DNA from: Promethearchaeum syntrophicum
GTDB taxonomy: Archaea; Asgardarchaeota; Lokiarchaeia; Sigyniarchaeales; Promethearchaeaceae
DNA length: 32,000 bases
NCBI RefSeq assembly: GCF_008000775.2
Contig: NZ_CP042905.2
Span: 2,580,001 to 2,612,000 of the forward strand
Direction of reading: 5' to 3'
Shown: positions 1,883 to 19,347 of the stretch, piece by piece
How positions within the stretch are numbered: position 1 is the first letter of the stretch
Layout: each line of letters begins with the position of its first letter
Made by a program: the position numbers and the translations under genes
Notes under the pieces: model-generated
Seen by the model: only the letters and a program-made list of their open reading frames with translations
What the model was told of the DNA's origin: nothing
Databases searched by the model: none

Positions 1883-3601
1883 ATGAAAAGTAAAGAACTC
1901 TACAAAATATCGAATTATGTTTATAATGAATCTTTTTTACAATCGCATTTAGATATGTCGGGAGCGAATGTTTCTTCAGTCATGGAAAAAATGGAAAAGA
2001 ATAAGAAGTATATTAAAAATCAAGTTATTTTTACGAAAATAATAATGGTATTATATGTTTCCTTCTTAATTTTCCTTCCAATTACAGGTTATCTTCAGAT
2101 CCAAAATGCAATAAACGAAGGAGTTTCAATAACATGGGTCCTTTTTTTAGGGGGGGCAGTAAATGGAGCTTATTTTCTTTTTCAATTTGCATATCTATTA
2201 ATGTTTGGAATGTTTAGTTCTACAGGACTGTTCACAGGGAATTTATTTCACTGGATATCTACTTTGCCAATAAAAAGAAAGGACATGAATAAAATTGGAA
2301 TGATGACATTATTCCGTGTTATTGATGCACAATTTATTGCCTTAATGTTAATATTTCCCCTTGCAACTGCCATTATCACCAAAAGTATAATAATTACTCT
2401 CATTAGTCTAGGATTATCTACTCTAAATACAATTTTTTCCTTTAATGTATTGATAATTTTATCGAAAAAATTTGCAGGAGTTATTAAAGGGGCAGATTCC
2501 AATGCTAAAGGCTCTAATTTAGCGCGAATTTTATTCTTGGTTGGTTATCTAGCAACAACTATGTTTGCAGTAATAGGGATACAATTTCTTCCTGAAGTTA
2601 TCAATTCGCTATATTATCAAGTACCTCCAAACCTAGCTTTATTTGAAACTTTAAATCAATGGATTAGTTTAATCCCCTTTCCTGTAAGTGGAGGTTATTT
2701 ATTAACTAGCTTTCTAATTGGATTAAATAATGTCGGAATGAATTTAATTCTACCAATATTAGTTGGTTTGGCCATTTTCGCTCTTATAGACTATGTTATG
2801 CTTAAAAAATCTCTTAAAATCATGAATGATGTCATTATTTCAAGATCAGATTCAAAAAAGCAAAATTTCAAGGTTTCTACTGTATCAGATGTTTCAGTTA
2901 CTGTTGTTTCCCCCATTAAAGCTTTTTTTCAAAGAGATAAAAGCATGATATTAAGAGATATCCAAGCTATCATTTTTATAATTATTCCTGTGATTTTACC
3001 ATGGATACCCTTTTTTATCATGATAAGACCTGAAACAGGATTTGTTGAAATTGAAGGATTTGGGGTTATGGAATTGATTTATTGCGTGATGGGAGCAACT
3101 ATGAATATATTGGGTTTAACAATGGTTGAGAAATCCGGAGCAACGATTAATGCTTCATTACCTATCATTGTACGTGATCAAGTTAAAGCAAGGTTGAAAT
3201 GGGCATTTAGTATAATACCTTTGGGTACTTTACTTCCAGTTGTTATGTACATTGGAAATTCTCTTTTTTGGGATGTCTTCATTATCCAAATTTCAATTTC
3301 TTTTGTTGGCTTACTAATTGGAACATTCTCATTATTATTGTGGATTAGATTATTTGGAAAAATGAAAAAAAAATATGTTTTAGACGAAATCCATTTTAGA
3401 TATAAGATTGCAAAAAATATTTTAATTGTTGTTATAGACTTCATTCTCTTGGTGCTTCTTACTATCGGTTTTGTAATATTGTTAAATTCTTGGAATCTTA
3501 GTAAATTTTCTATAATAATTTTCCCGATTGAATTAGTTCTGGCATTAATTTTATATCTTGTATATAACAAAATGTTTCCCAAACCAAAAAAAATCAATTA
3601 A
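1883..3601 (+). CDS. Large polytopic membrane protein, putative permease partner of the ABC ATPase
   Basis: The ATG lies 11 nt after the ATPase stop, with GAGGT about 8 nt upstream, which suggests operon coupling. The 572-aa protein has ten or more hydrophobic helices. The permease role is inferred from context only; no family motif recognised. Confidence 0.7.
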   Translation: MKSKELYKISNYVYNESFLQSHLDMSGANVSSVMEKMEKNKKYIKNQVIFTKIIMVLYVSFLIFLPITGYLQIQNAINEGVSITWVLFLGGAVNGAYFLFQFAYLLMFGMFSSTGLFTGNLFHWISTLPIKRKDMNKIGMMTLFRVIDAQFIALMLIFPLATAIITKSIIITLISLGLSTLNTIFSFNVLIILSKKFAGVIKGADSNAKGSNLARILFLVGYLATTMFAVIGIQFLPEVINSLYYQVPPNLALFETLNQWISLIPFPVSGGYLLTSFLIGLNNVGMNLILPILVGLAIFALIDYVMLKKSLKIMNDVIISRSDSKKQNFKVSTVSDVSVTVVSPIKAFFQRDKSMILRDIQAIIFIIIPVILPWIPFFIMIRPETGFVEIEGFGVMELIYCVMGATMNILGLTMVEKSGATINASLPIIVRDQVKARLKWAFSIIPLGTLLPVVMYIGNSLFWDVFIIQISISFVGLLIGTFSLLLWIRLFGKMKKKYVLDEIHFRYKIAKNILIVVIDFILLVLLTIGFVILLNSWNLSKFSIIIFPIELVLALILYLVYNKMFPKPKKIN

Positions 3602-3908: not shown

Positions 3909-6900
3909 ATGATTTTAACCAAGATTTTGAAAGGGAAAATCTTTCATAAAGTAAAGAAAAGATCACCTCTTACGAAATATTTATTTTCATTTTTGCTTTT
4001 TCTCTCATTTTCTGCTGTATTATCGGGAATTCAAATATATCCCACAACTCTCGATAATTTTGAAAATGGAGACCAAGCAAAAGAAGATATTTCTCATGAT
4101 TTTCTCGCAATGATTCCAAAAGCAAGTATCGGACCAACCATTGAGAATTTAACCAAAACTGATCTACTTGAATTGGGAGATTATGCAAATATTACAGTCG
4201 ACATAAACCACACCAATGGAGTGGATACAGCTTTCATCGAGATCGGTGGTACTAATTATACCATGACAAAAGGAGCTGGGGTTAACGAATATAACTATAC
4301 ATGGCAACCAAGCGCAGTGGGAAACATCCCTTTCACAATTTATGCTAATGATAGCGTTGGGGGAGAATGGAGTTCACTCCCAGAAGATTCAATCAATGTT
4401 CAAGATACAACTGGACCTTCATTATCATTTTTAACTAAAGTTAATGGTGATCCAACCGAGTTAGGAGTAAATGTTACAATTCGAATCACAGCAACCGATT
4501 TATCAACAGTTGATAGAGTATGGATCAATTTCGATGGAACTAATTACTCAATGAACTCTCTACCGGCTGATGTATACAATTATTCCGCACCACATCCAGT
4601 CGGGACTTATGGATTTACCATTTATGCCAATGATACAGAGGGGAATGAAGCAACTCCAGTTGTAAACTCCATCAGCGTTGAAGACACAATCATCCCAGAC
4701 ATAAATAATGTAGTGGAAGTTAGTGGAGATCCGGTCGAATTTGGAGATTCCATTTATATCCGAGTAAATGTAACCGATTTATCAACGATTGATGATGTCT
4801 GGATTGATTTAGATGGAACTAATTATACTATGAACTACATCAGTGATGATATGTATTATTACACTGCATCTCCGGCAGTTGGGTTACACACCTATACCAT
4901 TTATGCTAATGATACTACAGGAAATGAAGGTTCTACAGGTCCTTATACTATTACTGTATCAGATACAATTGCCCCAACAATATCGAATGTTGTGGAAGTG
5001 AGTGGAGATCCAGTCGAATTTAATGGAGCTATCTATATCAGAGTTAATGTAACCGATTTATCAGGTGTTGATGATGTCTGGATTGATTTAGATGGAACCA
5101 ATTATACTATGATCTACATCAGTGATGATATGTATTATTACACTACATCTCCGGCAATTGGGTTGCACACCTATACAATTTATGCTAACGATACTGAAGG
5201 AAATGAAGGTTCTACAATTGCTTATACTATTACTGTATCAGATACAATTGCCCCAACAATATCGAATGTTGTGGAAGTGAGTGGAGATCCAGTCGAATTT
5301 AATGGAGCTATCTATATCAGAGTTAATGTAACCGATTTATCAGGTGTTGATGATGTCTGGATTGATTTAGATGGAACCAATTATACTATGATCTACATCA
5401 GTGATGATATGTATTATTACACTACATCTCCGGCAATTGGGTTGCACACCTATACCATTTATGCTAACGATACTGAAGGAAATGAAGGTTCTACAATTGC
5501 TTATACTATTACTGTATCAGATACAATTGCCCCAACAATATCGAATGTTGTGGAAGTGAGTGGAGATCCAGTCGAATTTAATGGAGCTATCTATATCAGA
5601 GTTAATGTAACCGATTTATCGGGTGTTGATGATGTCTGGATTGATTTAGATGGAACCAATTATACTATGATCTACATCAGTGATGATATGTATTATTACA
5701 CTACATCTCCGGCAATTGGGTTGCACACCTATACCATTTATGCTAACGATACTGAAGGAAATGAAGGAGCCACATTGGCTGATACAATCACCGTGGAAGA
5801 CACTATCGATCCGGTATTAGATGTTCCGGTTGAAGTGAGTGGAGATCCTGTCGAATTTAATGGAGCCATCTATATCAGAGTTAATGTAACCGATTTATCA
5901 ACGATTGATGATGTGTGGATCGATTTAGATGGGACCAATTACACCATGATCTACATCAGTGATGATATGTATTATTACACTACATCTCCGGCAGTTGGGT
6001 TACACACTTATACCATTTATGCTAACGATACTGAAGGAAATGAAGGTTCTACAGGTCCTTATACAATCACCGTAGAAGACACTATCGATCCGGTATTAGA
6101 TGTTCCGGTTGAAGTGAGTGGAGATCCGGTTGAATTTAATGGAGCCATCTATATCAGAGTTAATGTAACCGATTTATCAACGATTGATGATGTCTGGATT
6201 GATTTAGATGGAACTAATTATACTATGAACTACATCAGTGATGATATGTATTATTACACTGCATCTCCGGCAGTTGGGTTACACACTTATACAATATATG
6301 CTAATGATACTTCAGGAAATGAAGGTTCTACAGGTCCTTATACTATTACTGTATCAGATACAATTGCCCCAACAATATCGAATGTTGAGGAAGTGAGTGG
6401 AGATCCGGTTGAATTTAATGGAGCCATCTATATCAGAGTAAACGTGACCGATATATCAGGTGTTGATGATGTCTGGATTGATTTCGATGGAACCAATTAT
6501 ACTATGATCTACATTAGTGATGATATGTATTATTACACTACATCTCCGGCAATTGGGTTGCACACCTATACCATTTATGCTAACGATACTGAAGGAAATG
6601 AAGGTTCTACAATTGCTTATACTATTACTGTATCAGATACAATTGCCCCAACAATATCGAATGTTGTGGAAGTGAGTGGAGATCCGGTTGAATTTAATGG
6701 AGCTATCTATATCAGAGTTAATGTAACCGATTTATCAGGTGTAGATGATGTCTGGATTGATTTAGATGGAACCAATTATACTATGATCTACATCAGTGAT
6801 GATATGTATTATTACACTGCATCTCCAGCAGTTGGGTTACACACCTATACCATTTATGCTAATGATACCGAAGGAAATGAAGGAGCCACATTGGCTGATA

Positions 6901-9900
6901 CAATCACCGTAGAAGACACTATCGATCCGGTATTAGATGTTCCGGTTGAAGTGAGTGGTGATCCTGTCGAATTTAATGGAGCCATCTATATCAGAGTTAA
7001 TGTAACCGATTTATCAACGATTGATGATGTGTGGATCGATTTAGATGGGACCAATTACACCATGATCTACATCAGTGATGATATGTATTATTACACTACA
7101 TCTCCGGCAGTTGGGTTACACACTTATACCATTTATGCTAACGATACTGAAGGAAATGAAGGTTCTACAGGTCCTTATACAATCACCGTAGAAGACACTA
7201 TCGATCCGGTATTAGATGTTCCGGTTGAAGTGAGTGGTGATCCTGTCGAATTTAATGGAGCCATCTATATCAGAGTTAATGTAACCGATTTATCAACGAT
7301 TGATGATGTGTGGATCGATTTAGATGGGACCAATTACACCATGATCTACATCAGTGATGATATGTATTATTACACTACATCTCCGGCAGTTGGGTTACAC
7401 ACTTATACCATTTATGCTAACGATACTGAAGGAAATGAAGGTTCTACAGGTCCTTATACAATCACCGTAGAAGACACTATCGATCCGGTATTAGATGTTC
7501 CGGTTGAAGTGAGTGGAGATCCGGTTGAATTTAATGGAGCCATCTATATCAGAGTTAATGTAACCGATTTATCAACGATTGATGATGTCTGGATTGATTT
7601 AGATGGAACTAATTATACTATGAACTACATCAGTGATGATATGTATTATTACACTGCATCTCCGGCAGTTGGGTTACACACTTATACAATATATGCTAAT
7701 GATACTTCAGGAAATGAAGGTTCTACAGGTCCTTATACTATTACTGTATCAGATACAATTGCCCCAACAATATCGAATGTTGAGGAAGTGAGTGGAGACC
7801 CGACCCAATCAGGATCAAATGTCTATATTCGAGTAAATGTGTCCGATTTATCAACGATTGATGATGTCTGGATCGATTTCGATGGAACCAATTATACTAT
7901 GATCTACATTAGTGATGATATGTATTACTTCTCTAGCTTGTATGTTATCGGAACATATCCTTATTCAATTTATGCTAATGATACATACGGTAACCAAGAT
8001 TCACTTACTGGTTTCGATATTGAGGTTTCAGATACAACACCACCTATAATCTCAAATATTGTTGAAGTAAGTAATGATCCAACAGAATTCAATAGTGATA
8101 TTTATATACGTGTTAATGTAACCCATCCTGTTGGAGTTGATGATGTATGGATTGAATTTAATGGAATTAATTTCACTATGACACCATTGGGAGGGATTAT
8201 GTATTATTACACGGCAACATACGGTATAAACACCTACTCATATACAATTTATTCGAATAGTACAATCGGAATTGAAGGTTCCTCAGGACCTTATACTATC
8301 ACTGTTTCAGACAATACTGATCCTTCCTTAGATATTCCTGTTGAAGTGAGTGGAGATCCAGTCGAATTTAATGGAGCCATCTATATCCGAGTTAATGTAA
8401 CCGATTTATCAACAATTGATGATGTCTGGATTGATTTAGATGGAACCAATTATACTATGATCTACATCAGTGATGATATGTATTATTACACTGCATCTCC
8501 AGCGGTTGGAATATACACTTATACCATTTATGCCAACGACACCTACGAGAATGAAGGTTCTACAGGTCCTTATACAATCACCATAGAAGACACTATCGAT
8601 CCAGTTTTATCCAATGTTGTGGAAGTGAGTGGAGATCCAGTCGAATTTAATGGAGCCATCTATATCAGAGTTAATGTAACCGATTTATCAACGATTGATG
8701 ATGTGTGGATCGATTTAGATGGGACCAATTACACCATGATCTACATCAGTGATGATATGTATTATTACACTACATCTCCGGCAGTTGGGTTACACACTTA
8801 TACCATTTATGCTAACGATACTGAAGGAAATGAAGGTTCTACAGGTCCTTATACAATCACCGTAGAAGACACTATCGATCCGGTATTAGATGTTCCGGTT
8901 GAAGTGAGTGGAGATCCGGTTGAATTTAATGGAGCCATCTATATCAGAGTTAATGTAACCGATTTATCAACGATTGATGATGTGTGGATCGATTTAGATG
9001 GGACCAATTACACCATGATCTACATCAGTGATGATATGTATTATTACACTACATCTCCGGCAGTTGGGTTACACACTTATACCATTTATGCTAACGATAC
9101 TGAAGGAAATGAAGGTTCTACAGGTCCTTATACAATCACCGTAGAAGACACTATCGATCCGGTATTAGATGTTCCGGTTGAAGTGAGTGGAGATCCGGTT
9201 GAATTTAATGGAGCCATCTATATCAGAGTTAATGTAACCGATTTATCAACGATTGATGATGTGTGGATCGATTTAGATGGGACCAATTACACCATGATCT
9301 ACATCAGTGATGATATGTATTATTACACTACATCTCCGGCAGTTGGGTTACACACTTATACCATTTATGCTAACGATACTGAAGGAAATGAAGGTTCTAC
9401 AGGTCCTTATACAATCACCGTAGAAGACACTATCGATCCGGTATTAGATGTTCCGGTTGAAGTGAGTGGAGATCCGGTTGAATTTAATGGAGCCATCTAT
9501 ATCAGAGTTAATGTAACCGATTTATCAACGATTGATGATGTGTGGATCGATTTAGATGGGACCAATTACACCATGATCTACATCAGTGATGATATGTATT
9601 ATTACACTACATCTCCGGCAGTTGGGTTACACACTTATACCATTTATGCTAACGATACTGAAGGAAATGAAGGTTCTACAGGTCCTTATACAATCACCGT
9701 AGAAGACACTATCGATCCGGTATTAGATGTTCCGGTTGAAGTGAGTGGAGATCCGGTTGAATTTAATGGAGCCATCTATATCAGAGTTAATGTAACCGAT
9801 TTATCAACGATTGATGATGTGTGGATCGATTTAGATGGGACCAATTACACCATGATCTACATCAGTGATGATATGTATTATTACACTACATCTCCGGCAG

Positions 9901-12900
9901 TTGGGTTACACACTTATACCATTTATGCTAACGATACTGAAGGAAATGAAGGTTCTACAGGTCCTTATACAATCACCGTAGAAGACACTATCGATCCGGT
10001 ATTAGATGTTCCGGTTGAAGTGAGTGGAGATCCGGTTGAATTTAATGGAGCCATCTATATCAGAGTTAATGTAACCGATTTATCAACGATTGATGATGTG
10101 TGGATCGATTTAGATGGGACCAATTACACCATGATCTACATCAGTGATGATATGTATTATTACACTACATCTCCGGCAGTTGGGTTACACACCTATACCA
10201 TTTATGCTAATGATACCGAAGGAAATGAAGGAGCCACATTGGCTGATACAATCACCGTAGAAGACACTATCGATCCGGTATTAGATGTTCCGGTTGAAGT
10301 GAGTGGAGATCCGGTTGAATTTAATGGAGCCATCTATATCAGAGTTAATGTAACCGATTTATCAACGATTGATGATGTCTGGATTGATTTAGATGGAACT
10401 AATTATACTATGAACTACATCAGTGATGATATGTATTATTACACTGCATCTCCGGCAGTTGGGTTACACACTTATACAATATATGCTAATGATACTTCAG
10501 GAAATGAAGGTTCTACAGGTCCTTATACTATTACTGTATCAGATACAATTGCCCCAACAATATCGAATGTTGAGGAAGTGAGTGGAGACCCGACCCAATC
10601 AGGATCAAATGTCTATATTCGAGTAAATGTGTCCGATTTATCAACGATTGATGATGTCTGGATCGATTTCGATGGAACCAATTATACTATGATCTACATT
10701 AGTGATGATATGTATTACTTCTCTAGCTTGTATGTTATCGGAACATATCCTTATTCAATTTATGCTAATGATACATACGGTAACCAAGATTCACTTACTG
10801 GTTTCGATATTGAGGTTTCAGATACAACACCACCTATAATCTCAAATATTGTTGAAGTAAGTAATGATCCAACAGAATTCAATAGTGATATTTATATACG
10901 TGTTAATGTAACCCATCCTGTTGGAGTTGATGATGTATGGATTGAATTTAATGGAATTAATTTCACTATGACACCATTGGGAGGGATTATGTATTATTAC
11001 ACGGCAACATACGGTATAAACACCTACTCATATACAATTTATTCGAATAGTACAATCGGAATTGAAGGTTCCTCAGGACCTTATACTATCACTGTTTCAG
11101 ACAATACTGATCCTTCCTTAGATATTCCTGTTGAAGTGAGTGGAGATCCAGTCGAATTTAATGGAGCCATCTATATCAGAGTTAATGTAACCGATTTATC
11201 AACGATTGATGATGTGTGGATCGATTTAGATGGGACCAATTACACCATGATCTACATCAGTGATGATATGTATTATTACACTGCATCTCCGGCAGTTGGG
11301 TTACACACTTATACCATTTATGCTAACGATACCGAAGGAAATGAAGGTTCTACAGGTCCTTATACAATCACCGTAGAAGACACTATCGATCCGGTCTTAT
11401 CCAATGTTGTGGAAGTGAGTGGAGATCCAGTCGAATTTAATGGAGCCATCTATATCAGAGTTAATGTAACCGATTTATCAACAATTAATGATGTCTGGAT
11501 TGATTTAGATGGAACCAATTATACTATGATCTACATCAGTGATGATATGTATTATTACACCACATCTCCGGCAGTTGCGGTGCACACCTATACCATTTAT
11601 GCTAATGATACTGAAGGAAATGAAGGTTCTACAGGTCCTTATACAATCACCATAGAAGACACTATTGGCCCTATTTTATCAAACTTAGTCGAAGTGAGTG
11701 GTGATCCAACCCAATCCGGTCAAGATATATATATCCGTCTAAATGTATCTGATTTCTCAACTTTAGACGATGTATGGATCGATTTTGATGGAATAAATTA
11801 TACGATGACTCCACTGAGTGGTGATATGTATTACTACACAGATTCTTATGGTTTCGGTGTGTATTCGTATACAATCTATGCTAATGATACTTATGGTAAC
11901 ACAGCCTCAATATTAGGCCCAGATATTACAGTTACGGATATAACTGCACCTATTATATCTAATTTAGTTGAAGTTAGTGGCGATCCTGTTGAATTTAATG
12001 GATCAATTTATATTCGGATAAATGTGACAGATCCATCAGGAGTAGATTCTGTGTGGATCGATTTCGATGGGACAAATTACACGATGACTTCACTAAGTGG
12101 TGATATGTATTATTACTCTACTTCACCTGCTGTTGGTACCCATAATTATACTATATATGCAAATGATACATATGGAAATGAGGGTATGATTTCAGGAGAT
12201 ATTTCAGTATCAGAAATTGTCCAATCTATTATCATCTTCGACCTTACTGATTATGCTACAGATTCATTAGCTGCTGATTCTGATTTTAATGTATCCTTAC
12301 CAATTGATAATAGCAGTACGATGGACTGGGCAAAAGTATATTTTATAATTGTTTCTGGACCTAGTTCTGCAGCACCAGGTGATAATTGGACGCCAATTGA
12401 TCTTGTAAATGGCCAAGCAACTATTTCATCAGAATACTATGATTCTGGAGATACACTATCCTACTATTTTGAAATCAGAGATACTGATGGGAATATCTTT
12501 TATGTTTTCAGTTCGGGAATAAGTACGAGTAATGCTACAGCTCAGACAGCTGCCTTTTCATTCGAAATAACCAATGCTACAGGAGGAACACCACTACCTT
12601 TTGATATCATGCAATATCTGCCTTATATATTAGGAGGTGTGGGAGTATTAGCGGTCATTTTAGTTTCTGTAGGAATCAAAAAATCGGCATCAAAGAGATC
12701 TATTTCTAAGAAAGATCTCCGCAATATGAAGGAAGCGGGTGATGCTGCAAAAGAATTACTTGAACGACAGAAAACCATACAAAAAGAAGCGAGTTATGCA
12801 GAGAAGAATAAGGATTATTACACAGTGGTTTTATTGTATGAAAAATTAATCGAAATTGCCGATGCCTTGTTCAAATTTGGTCGACCGGAAGCAGCAGATG

Positions 12901-13349
12901 ATATTAAGACCTATAAAGCCAAAATTATTAAATATCAAGAAAAGGTCCAAGAAGAACCAAAAACACAGGGAAAACCCAGTAATAAGCAAGTAGCTCAACA
13001 AAAAGCAGCTGAGTATTTGAAGATGGCCGATGATGCAGAAAATTCTAATGATTTTCTGCAAGCTCTCGCCATTCATCATCAAATTTTAATATTACGGGAA
13101 GAAATTAAAGAAAAATCTTTAGTTTCAGCTACCAAAGCGAAAATTAAAACAATAATTGCCAAAATCCCTAATATAAAAGAGATTAGCGCCGGAATTGTCA
13201 AAGAAGCAGAAAACAAATATAAAGAAAAAGATTATATGACAGCTTACGCCAATTATCGCTATTTGAAGACTATTTTTGAAGCGCTCGAGGATAAGACTTT
13301 AATTAAAACCGTAGACAAATTGATATCGGATGTTTCTAAATATATTTAA
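3909..13349 (+). CDS. Giant (3,146 aa) type-I membrane-anchored surface/adhesin-like protein with 29 tandem 93-aa beta-sandwich-like repeats and a helical cytoplasmic tail
   Basis: Single uninterrupted 9,441-nt ORF. It has an N-terminal basic region plus a hydrophobic signal/anchor (LTKYLFSFLLFLSFSAVLSG), then a 279-nt periodic coding array. A C-terminal TM helix (LPYILGGVGVLAVILVSVGI) is followed by KKSASKR and 222 aa of K/E/A-rich helical sequence. NxS/T sequons are dense throughout. Confidence 0.9.
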   Translation: MILTKILKGKIFHKVKKRSPLTKYLFSFLLFLSFSAVLSGIQIYPTTLDNFENGDQAKEDISHDFLAMIPKASIGPTIENLTKTDLLELGDYANITVDINHTNGVDTAFIEIGGTNYTMTKGAGVNEYNYTWQPSAVGNIPFTIYANDSVGGEWSSLPEDSINVQDTTGPSLSFLTKVNGDPTELGVNVTIRITATDLSTVDRVWINFDGTNYSMNSLPADVYNYSAPHPVGTYGFTIYANDTEGNEATPVVNSISVEDTIIPDINNVVEVSGDPVEFGDSIYIRVNVTDLSTIDDVWIDLDGTNYTMNYISDDMYYYTASPAVGLHTYTIYANDTTGNEGSTGPYTITVSDTIAPTISNVVEVSGDPVEFNGAIYIRVNVTDLSGVDDVWIDLDGTNYTMIYISDDMYYYTTSPAIGLHTYTIYANDTEGNEGSTIAYTITVSDTIAPTISNVVEVSGDPVEFNGAIYIRVNVTDLSGVDDVWIDLDGTNYTMIYISDDMYYYTTSPAIGLHTYTIYANDTEGNEGSTIAYTITVSDTIAPTISNVVEVSGDPVEFNGAIYIRVNVTDLSGVDDVWIDLDGTNYTMIYISDDMYYYTTSPAIGLHTYTIYANDTEGNEGATLADTITVEDTIDPVLDVPVEVSGDPVEFNGAIYIRVNVTDLSTIDDVWIDLDGTNYTMIYISDDMYYYTTSPAVGLHTYTIYANDTEGNEGSTGPYTITVEDTIDPVLDVPVEVSGDPVEFNGAIYIRVNVTDLSTIDDVWIDLDGTNYTMNYISDDMYYYTASPAVGLHTYTIYANDTSGNEGSTGPYTITVSDTIAPTISNVEEVSGDPVEFNGAIYIRVNVTDISGVDDVWIDFDGTNYTMIYISDDMYYYTTSPAIGLHTYTIYANDTEGNEGSTIAYTITVSDTIAPTISNVVEVSGDPVEFNGAIYIRVNVTDLSGVDDVWIDLDGTNYTMIYISDDMYYYTASPAVGLHTYTIYANDTEGNEGATLADTITVEDTIDPVLDVPVEVSGDPVEFNGAIYIRVNVTDLSTIDDVWIDLDGTNYTMIYISDDMYYYTTSPAVGLHTYTIYANDTEGNEGSTGPYTITVEDTIDPVLDVPVEVSGDPVEFNGAIYIRVNVTDLSTIDDVWIDLDGTNYTMIYISDDMYYYTTSPAVGLHTYTIYANDTEGNEGSTGPYTITVEDTIDPVLDVPVEVSGDPVEFNGAIYIRVNVTDLSTIDDVWIDLDGTNYTMNYISDDMYYYTASPAVGLHTYTIYANDTSGNEGSTGPYTITVSDTIAPTISNVEEVSGDPTQSGSNVYIRVNVSDLSTIDDVWIDFDGTNYTMIYISDDMYYFSSLYVIGTYPYSIYANDTYGNQDSLTGFDIEVSDTTPPIISNIVEVSNDPTEFNSDIYIRVNVTHPVGVDDVWIEFNGINFTMTPLGGIMYYYTATYGINTYSYTIYSNSTIGIEGSSGPYTITVSDNTDPSLDIPVEVSGDPVEFNGAIYIRVNVTDLSTIDDVWIDLDGTNYTMIYISDDMYYYTASPAVGIYTYTIYANDTYENEGSTGPYTITIEDTIDPVLSNVVEVSGDPVEFNGAIYIRVNVTDLSTIDDVWIDLDGTNYTMIYISDDMYYYTTSPAVGLHTYTIYANDTEGNEGSTGPYTITVEDTIDPVLDVPVEVSGDPVEFNGAIYIRVNVTDLSTIDDVWIDLDGTNYTMIYISDDMYYYTTSPAVGLHTYTIYANDTEGNEGSTGPYTITVEDTIDPVLDVPVEVSGDPVEFNGAIYIRVNVTDLSTIDDVWIDLDGTNYTMIYISDDMYYYTTSPAVGLHTYTIYANDTEGNEGSTGPYTITVEDTIDPVLDVPVEVSGDPVEFNGAIYIRVNVTDLSTIDDVWIDLDGTNYTMIYISDDMYYYTTSPAVGLHTYTIYANDTEGNEGSTGPYTITVEDTIDPVLDVPVEVSGDPVEFNGAIYIRVNVTDLSTIDDVWIDLDGTNYTMIYISDDMYYYTTSPAVGLHTYTIYANDTEGNEGSTGPYTITVEDTIDPVLDVPVEVSGDPVEFNGAIYIRVNVTDLSTIDDVWIDLDGTNYTMIYISDDMYYYTTSPAVGLHTYTIYANDTEGNEGATLADTITVEDTIDPVLDVPVEVSGDPVEFNGAIYIRVNVTDLSTIDDVWIDLDGTNYTMNYISDDMYYYTASPAVGLHTYTIYANDTSGNEGSTGPYTITVSDTIAPTISNVEEVSGDPTQSGSNVYIRVNVSDLSTIDDVWIDFDGTNYTMIYISDDMYYFSSLYVIGTYPYSIYANDTYGNQDSLTGFDIEVSDTTPPIISNIVEVSNDPTEFNSDIYIRVNVTHPVGVDDVWIEFNGINFTMTPLGGIMYYYTATYGINTYSYTIYSNSTIGIEGSSGPYTITVSDNTDPSLDIPVEVSGDPVEFNGAIYIRVNVTDLSTIDDVWIDLDGTNYTMIYISDDMYYYTASPAVGLHTYTIYANDTEGNEGSTGPYTITVEDTIDPVLSNVVEVSGDPVEFNGAIYIRVNVTDLSTINDVWIDLDGTNYTMIYISDDMYYYTTSPAVAVHTYTIYANDTEGNEGSTGPYTITIEDTIGPILSNLVEVSGDPTQSGQDIYIRLNVSDFSTLDDVWIDFDGINYTMTPLSGDMYYYTDSYGFGVYSYTIYANDTYGNTASILGPDITVTDITAPIISNLVEVSGDPVEFNGSIYIRINVTDPSGVDSVWIDFDGTNYTMTSLSGDMYYYSTSPAVGTHNYTIYANDTYGNEGMISGDISVSEIVQSIIIFDLTDYATDSLAADSDFNVSLPIDNSSTMDWAKVYFIIVSGPSSAAPGDNWTPIDLVNGQATISSEYYDSGDTLSYYFEIRDTDGNIFYVFSSGISTSNATAQTAAFSFEITNATGGTPLPFDIMQYLPYILGGVGVLAVILVSVGIKKSASKRSISKKDLRNMKEAGDAAKELLERQKTIQKEASYAEKNKDYYTVVLLYEKLIEIADALFKFGRPEAADDIKTYKAKIIKYQEKVQEEPKTQGKPSNKQVAQQKAAEYLKMADDAENSNDFLQALAIHHQILILREEIKEKSLVSATKAKIKTIIAKIPNIKEISAGIVKEAENKYKEKDYMTAYANYRYLKTIFEALEDKTLIKTVDKLISDVSKYI
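4155..12245 (+). repeat. In-frame tandem array, 29 x 279 nt (93 aa), inside the giant gene
   Basis: Hand alignment shows unit starts at 4713 + 279k (checked at 4992, 5271, 8619, 8898, 9177, 9456, 9735, 10014, 10293). Two degenerate units lie upstream (4155, 4434) and three diverged units at the 3' end (11409, 11688, 11967). The span 8091 nt equals 29 x 279 exactly. Confidence 0.95.
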
Positions 13350-13356
13350 TCGGAAC

Positions 13357-13406
13357 CTCCCCTTTTTTGATTAGATTTTATATTTTTTTCTTTTATTCTT
13401 TTTTTG
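13357..13406 (+). terminator. Oligo-T tracts downstream of the giant gene (archaeal-type termination signal)
   Basis: T6 at 13363-13368, T7 at 13383-13389 and T7 at 13399-13405, all within 60 nt of the stop codon. Confidence 0.4.
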
Positions 13407-13519: not shown

Positions 13520-13540
13520 CATGATTTTTCAAGTTAATCT
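13520..13540. repeat. IS terminal inverted repeat (end nearest the transposase stop)
   Basis: Perfect 21-nt reverse complement of 15268-15288. Confidence 0.9.
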
Positions 13541-15202
13541 TTTTTCATAAAATTGTGCTTGGACTTTACTAATTCCTAAAAATTTCAATGTTTTTTTTAA
13601 CCAATTTTCACTTAAAACCTTCTTACGTCCATCATGCATAGATTTAAGCAACCGCCAATTTAGATTACTCGCTTCTTCCCAAATATCACTTTCTAATTCT
13701 TCATCTCTACAGAATACAAAACGCAAATGGTAATCTCCTTCAGTAAGGATCAGCCTTCCCACTTGTTTCTTAGCACTACGACTGTAAAAATGCGATTTTT
13801 GGCGTCCAAAGGCTTGCTCTAAAGTATTATTTGTCAAAATCGGTTTTTCAAATTTACGATAACTGAATAGACCATTACGATAACTTTCCCACAATCTTAG
13901 CCACTCTCCCATTATTTCCAAATATGTACTAGACGATCGCGGTAAATAGGCCCGCAAATTCGTTTTAACAAAATTTTGATCGGTTTCAAGTAGTTTTTGC
14001 TCCAAATTGACAAATAATGTTGCCATGTTGTCCTCGATCTCTGATGAACTTACATTTTTTGCAAAGTATCCTGAATAAATTTCTTTGAAGATCTCAAAAA
14101 GTTCGTTACAATCAGAATAGAGAGAATATAATGAACTTAATGATTCTGTCCATTTTTCTCCCTCTCTACGATATATTTTGTGAATTCGATAGTTTTGAGG
14201 TACTTGACTCATGATTTCAAACATTTGAGCTGTGTAATCGTCTAAATGTTCGAAAAATTTAATCCCCCTAAGTTGTTCAAATTTTTTGTTTCTGAAGCGT
14301 TTCATTTTTTTTAAATCAGCAATTATCGGAGAAAAAACCGTTTTTGGGGCAATTTTTCCATGTTCTTCAATATATATTGGGGAATTAGGACCTGTGTTCA
14401 AAAAATAGCTATTTTGTATTACTTGAGATAATCTTTTATGGAGTTTTCCATCAAGTAATTCCAAATGATTCCAAATATTATTCATAAAATGGTACCCACA
14501 GTATTGATGGGGTATTTTGGGATAATATTTGGAGATGCAACTCGTTATATTGTTTTGTTTATCGCTAATAAATCCACTTATCTTCACAGAATAAAGAGAG
14601 ATAATTTTTTCAATCTCATCATGCAGAATATCTGCTGTTGCACTTTCTAGGTAAACCGTGGATAGTAATCGGTTCGAAATTAAATCAACAAAGAGCCACA
14701 ATCCTGGACCCTCAACCAATGGATCCTCTCCATCTAAACCCATTAAAATGACTTTTTGTTTCTTTATAATTTCTAAAGTTTTTTGATCAATAGCTTCAGA
14801 TTTGACTACAGTCACCACATTAATCATTCTTCGGATTGTACTTTCAGAAATTTTCAATTTATATTCTGTTTGAAGCACATCTAAAATATATGCTGCCTTA
14901 AAATGTTTCTTCAAAGCGTAAAATGCTACCTTTTGTACAACATCTTTTCCATAATAGAAACCTTCAAATTCAAACCGAGATTGAGGATTAAATACAATAT
15001 CGTGCATTTTACAATTTGGATTAATGCAATGATAATAGATTGTGATTTGATTTATGTCTCCAGCAAGAGAATGCACGATTTTACCATTGTCTGCATATTT
15101 TTTGATTACTTTTTCCTGACAGACAGGACATTCTTTTGGTAAATTCTGGGGCCATTTTAGATAAACGGTACAATAATCCCCCGACTGAGCATGATATTTC
15201 AT
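13529..15202 (-). CDS. DDE-type transposase with N-terminal zinc ribbon (IS256/IS66-like D...D...CxxH pattern; family not resolved)
   Basis: N-terminus has CPVCQEK...CINPNCKMH (CxxC...CxxxxC). Candidate catalytic motifs are LMGLDGEDP (D1) and GFISDKQNNITSCISKYYPKIPHQYCGYHFMNN (D2 followed by a HQxCxxH..N block). As I recall, this resembles the IS256/MULE and IS66 signatures. The ORF is bounded by terminal IRs. Confidence 0.75.
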   Translation of the reverse strand: MKYHAQSGDYCTVYLKWPQNLPKECPVCQEKVIKKYADNGKIVHSLAGDINQITIYYHCINPNCKMHDIVFNPQSRFEFEGFYYGKDVVQKVAFYALKKHFKAAYILDVLQTEYKLKISESTIRRMINVVTVVKSEAIDQKTLEIIKKQKVILMGLDGEDPLVEGPGLWLFVDLISNRLLSTVYLESATADILHDEIEKIISLYSVKISGFISDKQNNITSCISKYYPKIPHQYCGYHFMNNIWNHLELLDGKLHKRLSQVIQNSYFLNTGPNSPIYIEEHGKIAPKTVFSPIIADLKKMKRFRNKKFEQLRGIKFFEHLDDYTAQMFEIMSQVPQNYRIHKIYRREGEKWTESLSSLYSLYSDCNELFEIFKEIYSGYFAKNVSSSEIEDNMATLFVNLEQKLLETDQNFVKTNLRAYLPRSSSTYLEIMGEWLRLWESYRNGLFSYRKFEKPILTNNTLEQAFGRQKSHFYSRSAKKQVGRLILTEGDYHLRFVFCRDEELESDIWEEASNLNWRLLKSMHDGRKKVLSENWLKKTLKFLGISKVQAQFYEKRLT

Positions 15203-15267: not shown

Positions 15268-15288
15268 AGATTAACTTGAAAAATCATG
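15268..15288. repeat. IS terminal inverted repeat (end nearest the transposase start)
   Basis: Perfect 21-nt reverse complement of 13520-13540. Confidence 0.9.
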
Positions 15289-15342
15289 AAAAAAAAATTT
15301 TTTTTTTTAAGAAAAAATATATTAAAACTAAAAGTGTTGATT

Positions 15343-18336
15343 ATGAAAAATAAAACGTTAAAAATTATAGGTGTCATGGTTATTACGACATTTATTCTAA
15401 GCTATTTAAGCACTACGGCCTTAGTTTCAGCAGCGAATGGAGAACCGAATTTTATTTTGGAGACCTCAGAAGCAAAAAATTATGGAATGGGGGTTATACA
15501 GACTGAAAGATCAGTAGCAGCTACTCTTCAAATGAATGGAGAAGTCTCTGGGGGATTTACATATACAGATTTCTTGGGTAATCCTCAAGTGGCTGAAGAC
15601 TCTGTTTTTGAAACGGAAAATTCTCACCTCTATTATCCAGTTAATTTACGATATGAGAATTATTGGAATACGGAACTTTTGAGGGAATTTAGTACACATT
15701 ATGCAAGGGCACGAAATGTCTCAGATCTACCAGATCAACATGGAAATTACACAGCTTCTTTTGTAACTGAACAATATGAATTATCTGTAGATACTAGTTG
15801 TGAAATTTCTGTATCAGATTTAACCTCTGAAATTCTTTTTGATGTCTCCTCTAAAGGAATTTATCAAATTTGGATGAACAATATTAACCTAATCGGAAGT
15901 CCAGTCATTTTGTCTCCAACAGATAAATTTGTTATTCCCGTAGAAAATGAGTTACCACCGGTGATTGATGGAGGGGATTCTTTAGGCAAATATTTCTTTT
16001 TTGCTGCATATGAAACTGGGATTTATAGAATTTACCTTCAAACTGGTGACCCAATTATTACTTTAAGAGCAGAACATCATAAAGGGCAATCGATTAAATT
16101 AGGTGAAGCGATTCGTGGAGGAAAAGATCCAAGTGATCCAACATTCTTTGATACAGTCTATTCAATGGATGTTTATCAACTGGATGTAAAAAATTTAGAA
16201 ACTGTATACAAATATCTTTTAGATTTTGAATATGGATCACCTTCTTTATATTATTTTGTTGAAGATAGTCTGACGTCATATTCCTCAAGTTTGAACCCAG
16301 GTATTAATCGAGTTTTACCTTCTGTTACCGATAGTAAAGTATATATTGTAATCGATAATCCAAATTATTTCTCTTGGGCAGACCCTGGAATTGATGAAGC
16401 AGATCCACTAAAATATACTATGAAATTTGATGAGGTAGAACCTATAGAACATATAATTGGCGGAAATCAAACAATAAATTTAGCCAAATCAATAGGAGTT
16501 ACTGCAAGAACTTTTGAAATTGTAAATACATCTTTAGTATCATTCCATTTTGAAGATTTAGGCGCAAATTCACCAAATGTTTTTGGAAATAAAATTATAA
16601 AAATTGATGAAGAACAAGCACGGGATGCTTCAATACCGTCAACAATTTCTTCATCAAATGGAACTTTCATGAGTGCACTTTTAGAACCAGGAAAATATAA
16701 AGTTATTTTTCAGCATTCAGGATCAATGGGCCCAGAATATCTTCATTTCTATACAAAATTAGTAGAATTTCAACCATTAAATGTCGAAGGTATGGATTTA
16801 TCCGGAACCTTACCTTATAATTTTACTGGTCTAAATTTTGAAGATGTCACATTACCAGCATGGGAAGGCTATCCAAATACCTATGGGGCAACCTATCCGC
16901 TTGGTTTCAATATTTCAATTGATGAAAACTTTTGGGATTATGGTTATAATGTTTCAATTCATGCAGACAAAAATGCAGAAATTTTTGATGACTATATTAC
17001 TCCCGATTTGGCAGTTCTCTGGGACGATGATGGTAATGATTTTACAGATTATACTGAGGCAATCCAACCAGGAAATGCAACAAAAGTCCCTGTAAAAACA
17101 ATTCCTAGTGGTGATGTTGGAGATGCTTTGATTATTGGTGCTTATGATAAATTTGATCGTATTGAAGTTACATTGGCTGATCCATCAGATAGAGATGCTT
17201 TTGAATGGCAATATTACCGTGAATTCTGGGGATGGAGAGATTTTGATGCAGAGGATCCAAATTTCGATGATGGAACTCTAACTGCTACAGGAAGTTTAAA
17301 TAAGAGTGGAACATTATCTTGGGATCCGGAGGAATTAACTAATTGGAACTTTTTCTCTTCTGGTTCAGATGATATTGGTTCTGAAAGACCAAATACAGAT
17401 GATGAAAATTATTACTTAATTAGAGTTAGATGTACTGATGATGCAGCCGATATCGCTAATATTACCTCAGTAAGATTAAGGAAATTTACTAAGATCAATC
17501 TTGATTTAGGTAGTAAACTGGCTTTTAATATTGGGACTCCAGAAAAGCCTGTTTATTATAGAGCCAGTTCGGGCTCATCTTCGAATTTAAAATTCGCATC
17601 GAGTTATAACCAATCAAGTTATTTAGATGTAGTTCATACAATAGATAAGAATTATTATTCAGAAGAGGCAATTCTATATCTCTATGCTAGTGATATTCAA
17701 TTATATGACTATAATGGATCCAATAACGGAGTTTATGTTCCATTGGAAAAACCTTTGACATACTCGGTTTGTGTTTTTCAACCAGAAGCGAATTATAAAC
17801 AAATTATCCCGTATAATATCAGTTTAAATGTTCCAACAACTCATTCGAATCAGTTGAATTTATCCGCACTTCCAAGTGATCAATCAAATACCATAATAGT
17901 ACCTGATAGACGTACAGTGTACCTTAATATTACACCACGAACTATGTACGATTGGACACAAATTAATGTGCAATTTATCAACGCAAGTGTATTATCAACC
18001 CGTCTCATTGCTCCAGCAATGTATGATTTAGACACAGCAAGTACATATACGAGTACTTATGGTAATGGTCAATTTAATTTAGGCTATACTGGAGTCAATA
18101 TGAATGCGTCCATCGAATTCGGGTTTATTACTGAGACACTTTATCTTGAATTTGTTATTGAAAACACAACGAATAATTCTCCAATTATGAAAACCTATGG
18201 AGGACAATTTAACTACCCAATGTTAACAATATTAGAAGCATCAGTAAAATCTAATACGGGATTATACGTTGGAATTGGTGCCGGGGTAGTTGTTTTGATT
18301 GCAGTTTCAGTTGTACTCTATAAAAAGAAACATTAA
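15343..18336 (+). CDS. Secreted, C-terminally membrane-anchored surface protein of unknown function (997 aa from the preferred start)
   Basis: A signal peptide follows the internal ATG at 15343 (MKNKTLKIIGVMVITTFILSYLSTTALVSAANG). A C-terminal TM helix (GLYVGIGAGVVVLIAVSVVLY) is followed by KKKH. Many NxS/T sequons are present. The ORF-track start at 15286 lies inside the IS inverted repeat and an A/T homopolymer, so it is disfavoured. Confidence 0.8.
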   Translation: MKNKTLKIIGVMVITTFILSYLSTTALVSAANGEPNFILETSEAKNYGMGVIQTERSVAATLQMNGEVSGGFTYTDFLGNPQVAEDSVFETENSHLYYPVNLRYENYWNTELLREFSTHYARARNVSDLPDQHGNYTASFVTEQYELSVDTSCEISVSDLTSEILFDVSSKGIYQIWMNNINLIGSPVILSPTDKFVIPVENELPPVIDGGDSLGKYFFFAAYETGIYRIYLQTGDPIITLRAEHHKGQSIKLGEAIRGGKDPSDPTFFDTVYSMDVYQLDVKNLETVYKYLLDFEYGSPSLYYFVEDSLTSYSSSLNPGINRVLPSVTDSKVYIVIDNPNYFSWADPGIDEADPLKYTMKFDEVEPIEHIIGGNQTINLAKSIGVTARTFEIVNTSLVSFHFEDLGANSPNVFGNKIIKIDEEQARDASIPSTISSSNGTFMSALLEPGKYKVIFQHSGSMGPEYLHFYTKLVEFQPLNVEGMDLSGTLPYNFTGLNFEDVTLPAWEGYPNTYGATYPLGFNISIDENFWDYGYNVSIHADKNAEIFDDYITPDLAVLWDDDGNDFTDYTEAIQPGNATKVPVKTIPSGDVGDALIIGAYDKFDRIEVTLADPSDRDAFEWQYYREFWGWRDFDAEDPNFDDGTLTATGSLNKSGTLSWDPEELTNWNFFSSGSDDIGSERPNTDDENYYLIRVRCTDDAADIANITSVRLRKFTKINLDLGSKLAFNIGTPEKPVYYRASSGSSSNLKFASSYNQSSYLDVVHTIDKNYYSEEAILYLYASDIQLYDYNGSNNGVYVPLEKPLTYSVCVFQPEANYKQIIPYNISLNVPTTHSNQLNLSALPSDQSNTIIVPDRRTVYLNITPRTMYDWTQINVQFINASVLSTRLIAPAMYDLDTASTYTSTYGNGQFNLGYTGVNMNASIEFGFITETLYLEFVIENTTNNSPIMKTYGGQFNYPMLTILEASVKSNTGLYVGIGAGVVVLIAVSVVLYKKKH

Positions 18337-18471: not shown

Positions 18472-19347
18472 CTAAACTTCATATTTTGATTTAAAATATA
18501 ATAGATCTGATTGAATATCCTCAAAATCATAAATTTGGATTCTACTTTTTACCCCCATTTCAGTTGAATCTTGTGCTAAAATCGAAATTAAATTGAAATC
18601 TGATTTTATATGCTTAAAATCCTTATAACTAAGTTGTGGTCGAAACTTTCCGTCTCTTTTTATTTTAACAATTACCCATAACAAATACATTAAGATAATC
18701 CCCATATTAAATTCTATGAGGGTATTCACAACCATCAGCTCTAAACTCCAAGTTCCTTGCTCCAAACGTATTCCCGATACGGATAGGGAAAGCTCTAAAC
18801 AAAATTCAACCAGGATTCCAACAATAAAGAGATAAATAACATCTTCAAGTCTCAATTTTTTAAAGAGATACAATATGGTTGCAATGAGAATATTTCCTAT
18901 AGTCATTAAAGTAAATGTCAATCTCTGACGGTCAGCATTCATATTACGACTCACCCGTATAATTCGATCATCTAGCGGTATAAGTTGCGAGCCTACCCCT
19001 ACAAGGATCCACCCAAGGTAAAATATAATTGTCCAAACCCACAGCTCTCTCCAATTTCGTTTTTCAAACATCAATGCAACGTAGGAAAATTGAACGAAAC
19101 CTGCAGAAAAGCAAAACCAAAGAAAAAAAAGAATATTGTTGATGGGACCATCATACGTGCGGCTCTGCATGACTGTATACCAGATGTAATAATCTGCGAT
19201 TAAATATGCAATCCAACCAAAGAATCCCCAAATAATAGGAATCCAATATCTCTTTTTAATGAGAAAATATATCCAAATTGATAGAAAAAGAAGATCAAAA
19301 TAGATGAAATCAACCCCCAATGTTCGGGTTACTATCGAGTCAACCAT
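18472..19347 (-). CDS. Multi-pass integral membrane protein, unknown function
   Basis: The 291-aa protein has about 7-8 W/Y/F-rich hydrophobic helices and a soluble C-terminal segment of about 60 aa. No motif recognised. Confidence 0.7.
   Translation of the reverse strand: MVDSIVTRTLGVDFIYFDLLFLSIWIYFLIKKRYWIPIIWGFFGWIAYLIADYYIWYTVMQSRTYDGPINNILFFLWFCFSAGFVQFSYVALMFEKRNWRELWVWTIIFYLGWILVGVGSQLIPLDDRIIRVSRNMNADRQRLTFTLMTIGNILIATILYLFKKLRLEDVIYLFIVGILVEFCLELSLSVSGIRLEQGTWSLELMVVNTLIEFNMGIILMYLLWVIVKIKRDGKFRPQLSYKDFKHIKSDFNLISILAQDSTEMGVKSRIQIYDFEDIQSDLLYFKSKYEV

Follow-up and report, generated by a model that had tools for sequence, protein, structure and literature searches.

Three MIT/TPR-like helical modules in the cytoplasmic tail of a giant Lokiarchaeial surface protein

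The cytoplasmic tail of a giant single-pass surface protein, encoded in the 32,000-nucleotide stretch of Promethearchaeum syntrophicum DNA analysed here (the window), consists of three three-helix modules that belong to the MIT/TPR-like class, about 55-70 residues each. The reading favoured here, with a probability of roughly 0.55, is an MIT-like docking array of three homologous three-helix bundles, for which the tails of ESCRT-III proteins would be the most likely ligand class. A tail of this kind on a giant Lokiarchaeial surface protein represents a new architecture for MIT-like domains, and no MIT-like tails on Asgard surface proteins were found in the literature.

Topology and modular layout of the protein

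The protein is the 3146-residue product of the ORF at 3909..13349 (ORF list and translation; window coordinates, with all features on the + strand), and its closest named match, WP_147663969.1 of Ca. Prometheoarchaeum syntrophicum, has the same termini. Translation of 12501-13400 (+) reproduced exactly the tail sequence quoted in the original prediction, as the C-terminus of this ORF. Only two hydrophobic segments were found in the whole protein by a hydropathy scan, one at residues ~25-43 (3981..4037), which by its sequence is a signal or anchor segment, and one at residues 2903-2923 (12615..12677; translation and hydropathy scan), the transmembrane helix YLPYILGGVGVLAVILVSVGI. In the extracellular part, a unit of 279 nt is repeated in tandem about 25 times (4716..11665); it encodes Ig-like repeats (Pfam Big_7) with many N-glycosylation sequons. 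In total, the ectodomain holds 98 N-x-S/T sequons and 0.2% Lys, while the tail (12678..13346, about 222 residues; composition and alignments) holds no sequons and 17.5% Lys. The tail was assigned to the cytoplasm because of this difference in composition and because it begins with the basic stretch KKSASKRSISKK, directly after the transmembrane helix. Judging from its sequence, the repeat-rich surface protein is probably N-glycosylated.

The original prediction had described three similar modules following the transmembrane helix, and their coordinates, their mutual similarity and the AF2 model all agree with this description. Modelling of the whole tail (mean pLDDT 87.7) gave nine helices, laid out as three times three. 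Module 1 (12708..12953; AF2, Foldseek and alignments), with an MIT-like fold and the family-invariant motifs LFKFG and IK(K)Y, has helices at tail residues 10-42, 46-65 and 70-91. It is followed by the linker EPKTQGKPS (12954..12980; AF2 and alignment), which differs in sequence and length among relatives and is predicted to be disordered (pLDDT <50 at tail residues 92-98). Module 2 (12981..13160; AF2, alignments and family profile) has helices at tail residues 101-121, 125-141 and 145-160 and the family consensus LL..A..AE...D...AL.AYQQ.L.IY..(GD..NA)..KI. A conserved (K)IPN(L/I) turn joins it to module 3 (13173..13337; AF2 and alignments; helices at tail residues 165-181, 185-202 and 205-219), which is the most divergent of the three in distant relatives. 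The internal repeat period is accordingly three helices, or ~55-70 residues. Module-to-module Smith-Waterman comparisons with 2000 shuffles gave z = 2.6 (M1/M2), 3.8 (M1/M3) and 5.1 (M2/M3), the last over 46 ungapped residues across all three helices, and hhalign comparisons between the modules (three-sequence alignments) gave E = 0.007, 0.0005 and 0.018 in a common helix1-turn-helix2 register. This similarity is modest and above chance, weak but consistent, and on these alignments the three modules are homologous to one another.

Conservation of the array in Lokiarchaeia

The family defined by the tail comprises 24 representatives, and its named members are all Promethearchaeota (Lokiarchaeia), namely Ca. 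P. syntrophicum, Ca. L. ossiferum and Promethearchaeota MAGs; both cultured Lokiarchaeia carry the array. It is found on large single-pass proteins with differing ectodomains, at the extreme C-terminus of every full-length member and of most fragments, with the tail match ending a few to ~40 residues from the C-terminus. The window protein has the layout characteristic of the family, a single transmembrane helix near the C-terminus followed by a terminal M1-M2(-M3) array. Tail identity to close relatives is 64% in P0001 and P0002 and 78% in P0004, and searches still detect the tail in distant relatives with different ectodomains (E 1e-8 to 1e-31). The alignment columns F64, G67, K76 and E120 are invariant, and the motifs LFKFG, IKKY and KIPNL are strongly conserved. 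Long-form relatives contain five or more modules together with other conserved cytoplasmic domains; their conserved juxtamembrane region gave no Pfam or PDB sequence match.

This conservation bears on the simplest alternative, a structural spacer or coiled coil that binds nothing specific, or a chance likeness of Lys/Glu/Ala-rich helices. The charged, low-complexity helical composition of the tail would fit such a reading, as would the spurious matches of the family profile in the PDB (GCN4 fusions, coiled-coil proteins) and the near-chance pairwise Smith-Waterman scores of the window modules against VPS4A/B, MITD1 and yeast Vps4 (z 0.2-3.5, with similar values for consensus TPR). The alternative is nevertheless very improbable and largely refuted by the degree of tail conservation, the invariant columns and the AF2 models, which show helix-turn-helix bundles and no single long helix. 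A continuous coiled coil, which the original prediction had named as the outcome that would speak against it, was ruled out by these models and by helix breaks at conserved Gly/Pro positions.

Comparison with MIT and TPR domains

MIT belongs to the TPR clan in Pfam. With HMMER, neither the window's tail nor its three single modules matched Pfam MIT or TPR even at E<=10, so that the profile search put forward as a check in the original prediction did not bear it out for the window itself. The Pfam scan of the tail gave no family above cut-off (only weak unrelated matches, for example CCDC24 at E 0.0037), the scan of the three single modules gave no match, and a phmmer search of the tail against the PDB returned designed repeat proteins only. 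Among the relatives, 5 of 21 tails matched Pfam MIT (best E 5.1e-7, tail-only scan), which was the top or near-top family in one register (P0007 module 1 at profile positions 6-62 of 66; P0009 module 2 at 6-54). No relative reached the Pfam MIT gathering threshold of 30 bits, the highest score among the matches listed being 26.2 bits (P0009), and single modules of relatives scored 14.7-21.2 bits (E 3.2e-4 and 1.1e-3 for modules 1 and 2 of P0007, 0.034 for module 3 of P0005). TPR_1, TPR_2 and TPR_12 matched as many family members as MIT did across the same 21 tails; P0008 scored 28.1 bits with TPR_2 against a cut-off of 27, while all other relatives were below the TPR thresholds and the window gave no match.

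Profile comparisons were similarly divided. The best non-coiled-coil match of the family profile in the PDB was the MIT domain of MITD1 (E 0.0015, over all three helices of module 2), and the module-1 family profile matched consensus-TPR proteins only, via the helix1-turn-helix2 motif. Alignments of the family modules to small MIT and TPR alignments by hhalign were weak for both and above reversed-sequence controls; against the 6-sequence MIT alignment P was 0.012, 0.0013 and 0.0084, and consensus TPR did equally well or better. However, a genuine MIT domain, that of Sulfolobus, itself matches CTPR at E 9e-7, and since genuine MIT domains also match consensus TPR, the TPR signal is no argument against MIT. 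At the level of sequence, MIT and TPR cannot be separated for the tail modules. The original prediction had also likened the third helix of module 1 to helix 3 of VPS4: a third helix is indeed predicted, but the Vps4-type motif Y-L-x-R-A-E-x-L-K of the MIM1 groove is absent from it. This helix reads IKTYKAKIIKYQEKVQE, with KIIKYQEKV at the place of Y-L-x-R-A-E (family consensus IKKY..KI..LK.K), and in this it differs from eukaryotic Vps4. The genuine Sulfolobus MIT also lacks the motif (EYKRRIEVLKE), which is therefore not universal among MIT domains.

Structural comparison separated the two classes more clearly for module 1. Modelled alone (pLDDT 92.6, pTM 0.81; helices 3-23, 27-46 and 52-72), it forms a compact antiparallel three-helix bundle, as MIT domains do, and MIT or MIT-like domains made up 17 of its top 50 Foldseek matches in the PDB. 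Ranks 1, 2 and 4 were taken by Sulfolobus Vps4 MIT (2v6y, and 2w2u, which is a complex with ESCRT-III) with TM 0.81-0.83, rmsd 1.3-1.5 Å and 19-24% identity over 72-73 columns, followed by VPS4A/B, MITD1, USP8 and yeast Vps4. The best natural non-MIT class, bS20 ribosomal protein, reached TM 0.61-0.69 (query-normalised) and TPR fragments TM 0.42-0.50, so module 1 superposes better on solved MIT domains than on other folds; the Foldseek E-values are weak (at least 0.15) because the domain is short. Like the MIT domains of Vps4/CdvC (PF04212; S. solfataricus 2v6y, S. acidocaldarius 2w2u, human VPS4A/B 2jq9 and 4u7y), module 1 is an antiparallel three-helix bundle of ~70 residues with the helix1-turn-helix2 motif A..A....(D/N)(Y/F)..A...Y, and it can be aligned with Sulfolobus MIT without gaps (about 21% identity by hand count). 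As modelled, it is MIT-like, with a fold that cannot be told apart from that of Vps4-type MIT domains. Modules 2 and 3, each with three helices within the whole-tail model, probably share this fold. The MIT likeness proposed originally thus stands for the fold of module 1, where modelling and Foldseek bore it out, and for the sub-threshold matches of relatives; it is tempered by the lack of an MIT match in the window and by TPR models matching about as well.

Much of the above would also be expected from a generic scaffold of the TPR clan whose partner lies outside ESCRT, such as a component of the actin cytoskeleton, a small GTPase or its regulator, or a chaperone-like factor; the MIT likeness would then reflect shared 1.5-TPR geometry only. 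Such a scaffold is a serious possibility, if one that falls short of even odds. In addition to the Pfam, module-1 profile and hhalign results, the best Foldseek matches of the whole-tail model were TPR proteins, including the TPR domains of LGN and KLC, and one family member carries the JGI name 'TPR repeat protein'. TPR domains (LGN/Pins, KLC, PP5, CTPR) share with the tail modules the sequence motif of helices 1 and 2, and with the relatives the sub-threshold TPR_1/2/12 matches. Their unit, however, is a 34-residue helix pair and not three helices of ~55-70 residues, and the whole tail superposed poorly on TPR solenoids (TM about 0.3, rmsd 12-16 Å), unlike a TPR superhelix of tandem helix pairs. 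The much better superposition of module 1 on MIT than on TPR fragments, and the match of real MIT domains to consensus TPRs, likewise speak against it.

The whole-tail model had a pTM of only 0.54 despite its high pLDDT, so the arrangement of the modules relative to each other is undefined. This would be compatible with self-association, in which the bundles pair within or between molecules, giving lateral clustering or an auto-inhibited state in place of recruitment. MIT-like domains can dimerise, Pfam USP8_dimer was matched by 2 of 21 tails, and the N-terminal domain of USP8 is among the structural matches of module 1. Self-association is nonetheless improbable: the conserved LFKFG, IKKY and KIPNL motifs fit a hetero-partner equally well, and the additional modules and cytoplasmic domains of the long-form relatives suggest a multi-partner platform.

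ESCRT context and possible partners

The original prediction had called the coupling especially interesting if the host were an ESCRT-bearing archaeon, and the organism of the closest named match does have ESCRT-III and Vps4. MK-D1 (Ca. Prometheoarchaeum syntrophicum) expresses ESCRT-III and makes vesicles, blebs and constricted protrusions (PMC7015854), and Asgard ESCRT-III is bound by the MIT domains of Asgard Vps4 (PMC7240154). Lokiarchaeia have no ordered S-layer; their single membrane bears "complex surface proteins" (PMC9834061). Vps4 (DSAG12_03699) is listed among the proteins encoded by MK-D1 (supplementary table); a search of genome contigs with human VPS4B for Lokiarchaeial Vps4 yielded only generic loci of the AAA and Cdc48 kinds (L056 being Cdc48). 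No ESCRT genes were present in the window or beside the gene in the four relatives whose gene neighbourhoods were examined, and this absence of a genomic link is a further point in favour of a TPR-type scaffold.

For the favoured docking array, the position directly after the single transmembrane helix would make the tail a membrane-proximal docking platform. The inter-helix grooves of each bundle would hold a short motif, amphipathic-helical or proline-rich, from a partner in the cytoplasm, and the extracellular Ig-repeat stalk would thereby be tied to machinery beneath the membrane. We infer that the grooves bind peptides, and that ESCRT-III, most likely through the MIM-type C-terminal tails of host subunits, would be the ligand. 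Binding would concentrate the surface protein at ESCRT-III assemblies or recruit the assemblies to the protein, with the necks of blebs, vesicles or protrusions as candidate sites. Coupling of the tail to ESCRT-III is plausible. The fuller proposition is more doubtful and on balance rather unlikely, namely that the bundles bind MIM-type ESCRT-III tails and so wire a giant adhesin-like protein to ESCRT membrane remodelling, either as a cargo equipped with an ESCRT-III reader or as a signal at the surface by which ESCRT-III is placed at the necks of vesicles, blebs or protrusions.

Eukaryotes have non-Vps4 MIT proteins and tandem-MIT proteins (MITD1, calpain-7, Vta1/LIP5, ULK3, USP8), and the reading of ESCRT-III tails by MIT modules in tandem is well established there; the likeness of the array to these proteins is seen at the level of fold and clan. 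Those proteins are soluble, cytosolic and recruited to ESCRT-III, whereas a covalent link holds the array at the membrane, under a giant ectodomain. The array also differs from the MIT domain of Vps4, which is N-terminal on an AAA ATPase, in being C-terminal on a transmembrane surface protein, in occurring as three tandem copies and in scoring below the Pfam threshold. Membrane-anchored MIT proteins of eukaryotes include the M1 isoform of spastin and chitin synthases of oomycetes or fungi in which an MIT domain lies at the N-terminus. As in the array, the domain is held at the membrane through the protein's own hydrophobic segments, but these proteins are enzymes or severing ATPases, anchored by a hairpin or by several membrane passes. 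To our knowledge, neither a giant single-pass adhesin-like protein nor an archaeal protein is among such membrane-anchored examples.

If the modules read ESCRT-III tails, the prokaryotes most closely related to eukaryotes would have a link between adhesion and membrane scission, a pre-eukaryotic coupling of cargo to ESCRT in which ubiquitin and ESCRT-I/II are bypassed. If they bind another partner, they would still mark a Lokiarchaeia-specific system of transmembrane coupling that is new to the literature. The family provides a concrete molecular handle on the link between the Lokiarchaeial surface proteome and the eukaryote-like machinery inside the cell.

Topology of the giant surface protein and its tail

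The ORF at 3909-13349 (+) encodes a giant surface protein of 3,146 amino acids, in whose sequence an N-terminal hydrophobic segment is followed by an array of about 25 near-identical 279-nt repeats encoding Ig-like Big_7 domains (4716-11665; 24.9 copies, 85% match). Big_7 was matched in Pfam by 27 stretches of the protein (E = 7e-63). Only one further hydrophobic stretch, a transmembrane (TM) segment at residues 2903-2923, precedes the tail (12678-13346 (+), 222-223 residues, beginning with KKSASKRSISKK); the tail sequence quoted in the original prediction was an exact translation of 12681-13346 (+). Composition was split to an extreme degree across the membrane, the ectodomain (3909-12614) having 98 N-x-S/T sequons, 0.2% Lys, 11.5% Asp and 13% Thr, whereas the tail had 17.5% Lys and no sequons. 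The split in sequons and lysine gives good support to a predicted single pass through the membrane, with the tail in the cytoplasm.

Three mutually similar modules had been proposed within the tail, and this was borne out: alignments of module pairs scored above shuffled sequences (z = 2.6, 3.8 and 5.1), and hhalign at the profile level placed the modules in one shared register (E = 0.007, 0.0005 and 0.018). AlphaFold2 modelling of the tail (with two homologues) gave a mean pLDDT of 87.7 and nine helices arranged as 3 + 3 + 3, which ruled out one continuous coiled coil; helix 1 began about nine residues past the TM segment, and a disordered linker lay behind the first helix triplet. Mutual placement of the modules was undefined, since the pTM of the whole-tail model was only 0.54. 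Three homologous three-helix bundles make up the tail, a conserved array lying in the cytoplasm immediately under the membrane. For such an array, self-association of the bundles would be an improbable role, and that of a non-specific spacer a very improbable one.

Fold and sequence affinities of the modules

Modelled by itself (12738-12965, a 76-residue query), module 1 formed three helices (pLDDT 92.6, pTM 0.81). In a Foldseek search of this model against 350,542 PDB chains, MIT domains ranked first: the Vps4 MIT of S. solfataricus (2v6y_A; TM 0.81/0.82, rmsd 1.5 Å, 73 columns) and the MIT of S. acidocaldarius bound to ESCRT-III (2w2u_A and 2w2u_B; TM 0.81-0.83, rmsd 1.3 Å, 23-24% identity, about 21% in an ungapped hand alignment), followed by VPS4B (0.72-0.76), MITD1 (0.73-0.75), USP8-N, VPS4A and yeast Vps4. 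MIT or MIT-like domains made up 17 of the best 50 matches, and other classes were clearly worse (ribosomal bS20 0.61-0.69, query-normalised; designed minibinders 0.67-0.78; TPR fragments 0.42-0.50). No Foldseek E-value was better than 0.15, a weakness to be expected of a query so short (76 residues) and all-helical. In its modelled fold, module 1 is MIT-like.

By HMMER, neither the window tail nor any module singly matched MIT (PF04212) or TPR in Pfam, even at E ≤ 10, nor any other family above its cut-off. Among 21 family tails scanned singly, five matched MIT (best E of any family, 5.1e-7) and two matched USP8_dimer, an MIT-like domain, while TPR_12, TPR_2 and TPR_1 had seven, six and six matches, respectively. 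MIT was the top Pfam match of module 1 alone in relatives P0007 (E = 3.2e-4, profile positions 6-62 of 66), P0005 (3.7e-4) and P0009 (0.01), came first or second for module 2 in P0007 and P0009 (1-2e-3, positions 6-54 of 66), and appeared once for module 3 (P0005, 0.034); all MIT matches with a bit score given fell below the 30-bit cut-off (best 26.2). When the 21-sequence family profile was compared with all PDB sequences, the MITD1 MIT domain led once GCN4-fusion artefacts were set aside (2ymb, E = 0.0015; 4a5x, 0.009), spanning all three helices of module 2; with a profile built from module 1 alone, the helix1-turn-helix2 motif brought up consensus-TPR proteins. MIT domains are ambiguous in this way by nature: in calibration searches the PP5 TPR (0.004) outscored the ULK3 MIT (0.039) for human VPS4A MIT, and consensus TPRs (9e-7) were far ahead of human VPS4B MIT (0.005) for Sulfolobus Vps4 MIT. 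Alignment of the modules to small alignments by hhalign was weak for both classes (P = 0.012-0.0013 for MIT and 0.005-0.00016 for TPR; reversed-sequence controls, 0.02-0.58). Such weak, two-way matches place the modules in the MIT/TPR clan, within which sequence cannot choose.

Of the MIT-likeness originally proposed, the fold stood, in module 1; the sequence resemblance was not supported as put forward, MIT and TPR being inseparable and the window tail lacking a Pfam match. The main rival reading, a TPR-type scaffold with a partner other than ESCRT-III, is consistent with the TPR matches of the family tails and ill-suited to the low scores of TPR fragments in the structural search; it is a lesser possibility, albeit likelier than self-association or a spacer.

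The tail family and its long forms

Only two close homologues of the tail (about 64% identity), one of them in a Promethearchaeota MAG, were found by word-indexed search; exhaustive HMMER with a three-sequence profile against 1.84 billion representatives gave a family of 24 proteins (E ≤ 1e-3). The tail match lay at the extreme C-terminus in all full-length members and nearly all fragments, and longer members (973-2640 aa) had a TM helix upstream of it. Named relatives were WP_147663969.1 of Ca. Prometheoarchaeum syntrophicum (1844 aa), WP_371805894.1, WP_457919335.1 and UYP45289.1 of Ca. Lokiarchaeum ossiferum, and Promethearchaeota MAG proteins, all annotated as hypothetical. With this placement and named members all from Lokiarchaeia, the tail marks out a small family, restricted among named members to Lokiarchaeia, whose proteins are giant and lie at the cell surface. 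WP_147663969.1 shares both termini with the 3,146-aa window protein and has fewer of the 279-nt Ig-like repeats, reflecting either a collapsed array in the public assembly or strain-level copy-number variation. One 164-aa relative (P0023) is probably a chimera produced by assembly or gene calling: it joins a lipoprotein-like signal sequence to 55 residues that almost repeat those at the module 1-2 junction in P0004, with unrelated sequence after them.

In the short form (the window protein, P0001, P0002 and P0004) the TM segment is followed by three modules; in the long form (for example, locus L002, 10001-17923) by a conserved cytoplasmic region of about 330 residues and then five or more modules. 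This region, strongly conserved in P0005, P0006, P0014, P0015, P0016, P0019, P0020 and P0024, including Ca. Lokiarchaeum ossiferum, bears the signature ILIIYK.TG..LFFKSF...DPDLISGFLSA.QSF, had no sequence match in Pfam or PDB, and by eye recalls a longin or roadblock-type alpha/beta domain. Long-form genes have a P-type ATPase plus ATP-grasp gene on one side and an RNA polymerase A'/ribosomal protein cluster on the other, housekeeping neighbours that are unusual for a surface protein. The order P-type cation ATPase, ATP-grasp_5, giant surface protein, RNA polymerase A'/A'', L7Ae, S12, S7 was kept at three loci (L002, L004 and L005), with an Arf/Ras-family GTPase gene also nearby at L005.

ESCRT context and possible role

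The closest named match to the window protein is from Ca. P. syntrophicum MK-D1. Absence of ESCRT-III from the genome was rejected, because MK-D1 expresses Vps2/24/46-like and Vps20/32/60-like ESCRT-III proteins (PMC7015854) and encodes Vps4 (DSAG12_03699; supplementary table). MIM1-like and MIM2-like motifs occur in Asgard ESCRT-III proteins and are bound by Asgard Vps4 MIT domains (PMC7240154). No ESCRT gene association was found in the window or the long-form gene neighbourhoods. Window genes encode an ABC ATPase, a MULE-like transposase, metabolic enzymes, a 2-oxoacid:ferredoxin oxidoreductase, an MFS transporter and an integrase; seven sizeable ORFs, one of 1016 aa, had no Pfam match at E ≤ 1e-3 (15-977, 1883-3601, 15286-18336, 18472-19347, 20577-21461, 28839-29300 and 31014-31859). 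Mobile elements may flank the locus: a 557-aa ORF directly downstream on the opposite strand (13529-15202 (-)) weakly matched a MULE transposase (E = 2e-4, below threshold), and a tyrosine integrase lies farther along (29285-30247 (+)).

The bundles would act as peptide- or helix-docking modules, for which ESCRT-III MIM tails would be the most specific hypothesis among candidate ligands. An MIT-like fold with an adaptor role, ESCRT-III being the leading ligand class, is the reading we prefer, at a probability of roughly 0.55; that ESCRT-III is the actual ligand is rather doubtful. Fold-level likeness is the whole basis of the functional claim. Such tails go unmentioned in a broad ESCRT survey (PMC10936438) and in targeted literature searches. 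The domain class is already known; as far as found, the architecture is undescribed, in which giant single-pass surface proteins, with named members only from Lokiarchaeia and in both cultured species, have a cytoplasmic tail that finishes in tandem MIT-like bundles. To specialists, an Asgard surface protein with an ESCRT-reader-like tail would be noteworthy, and the question is testable with existing reagents.
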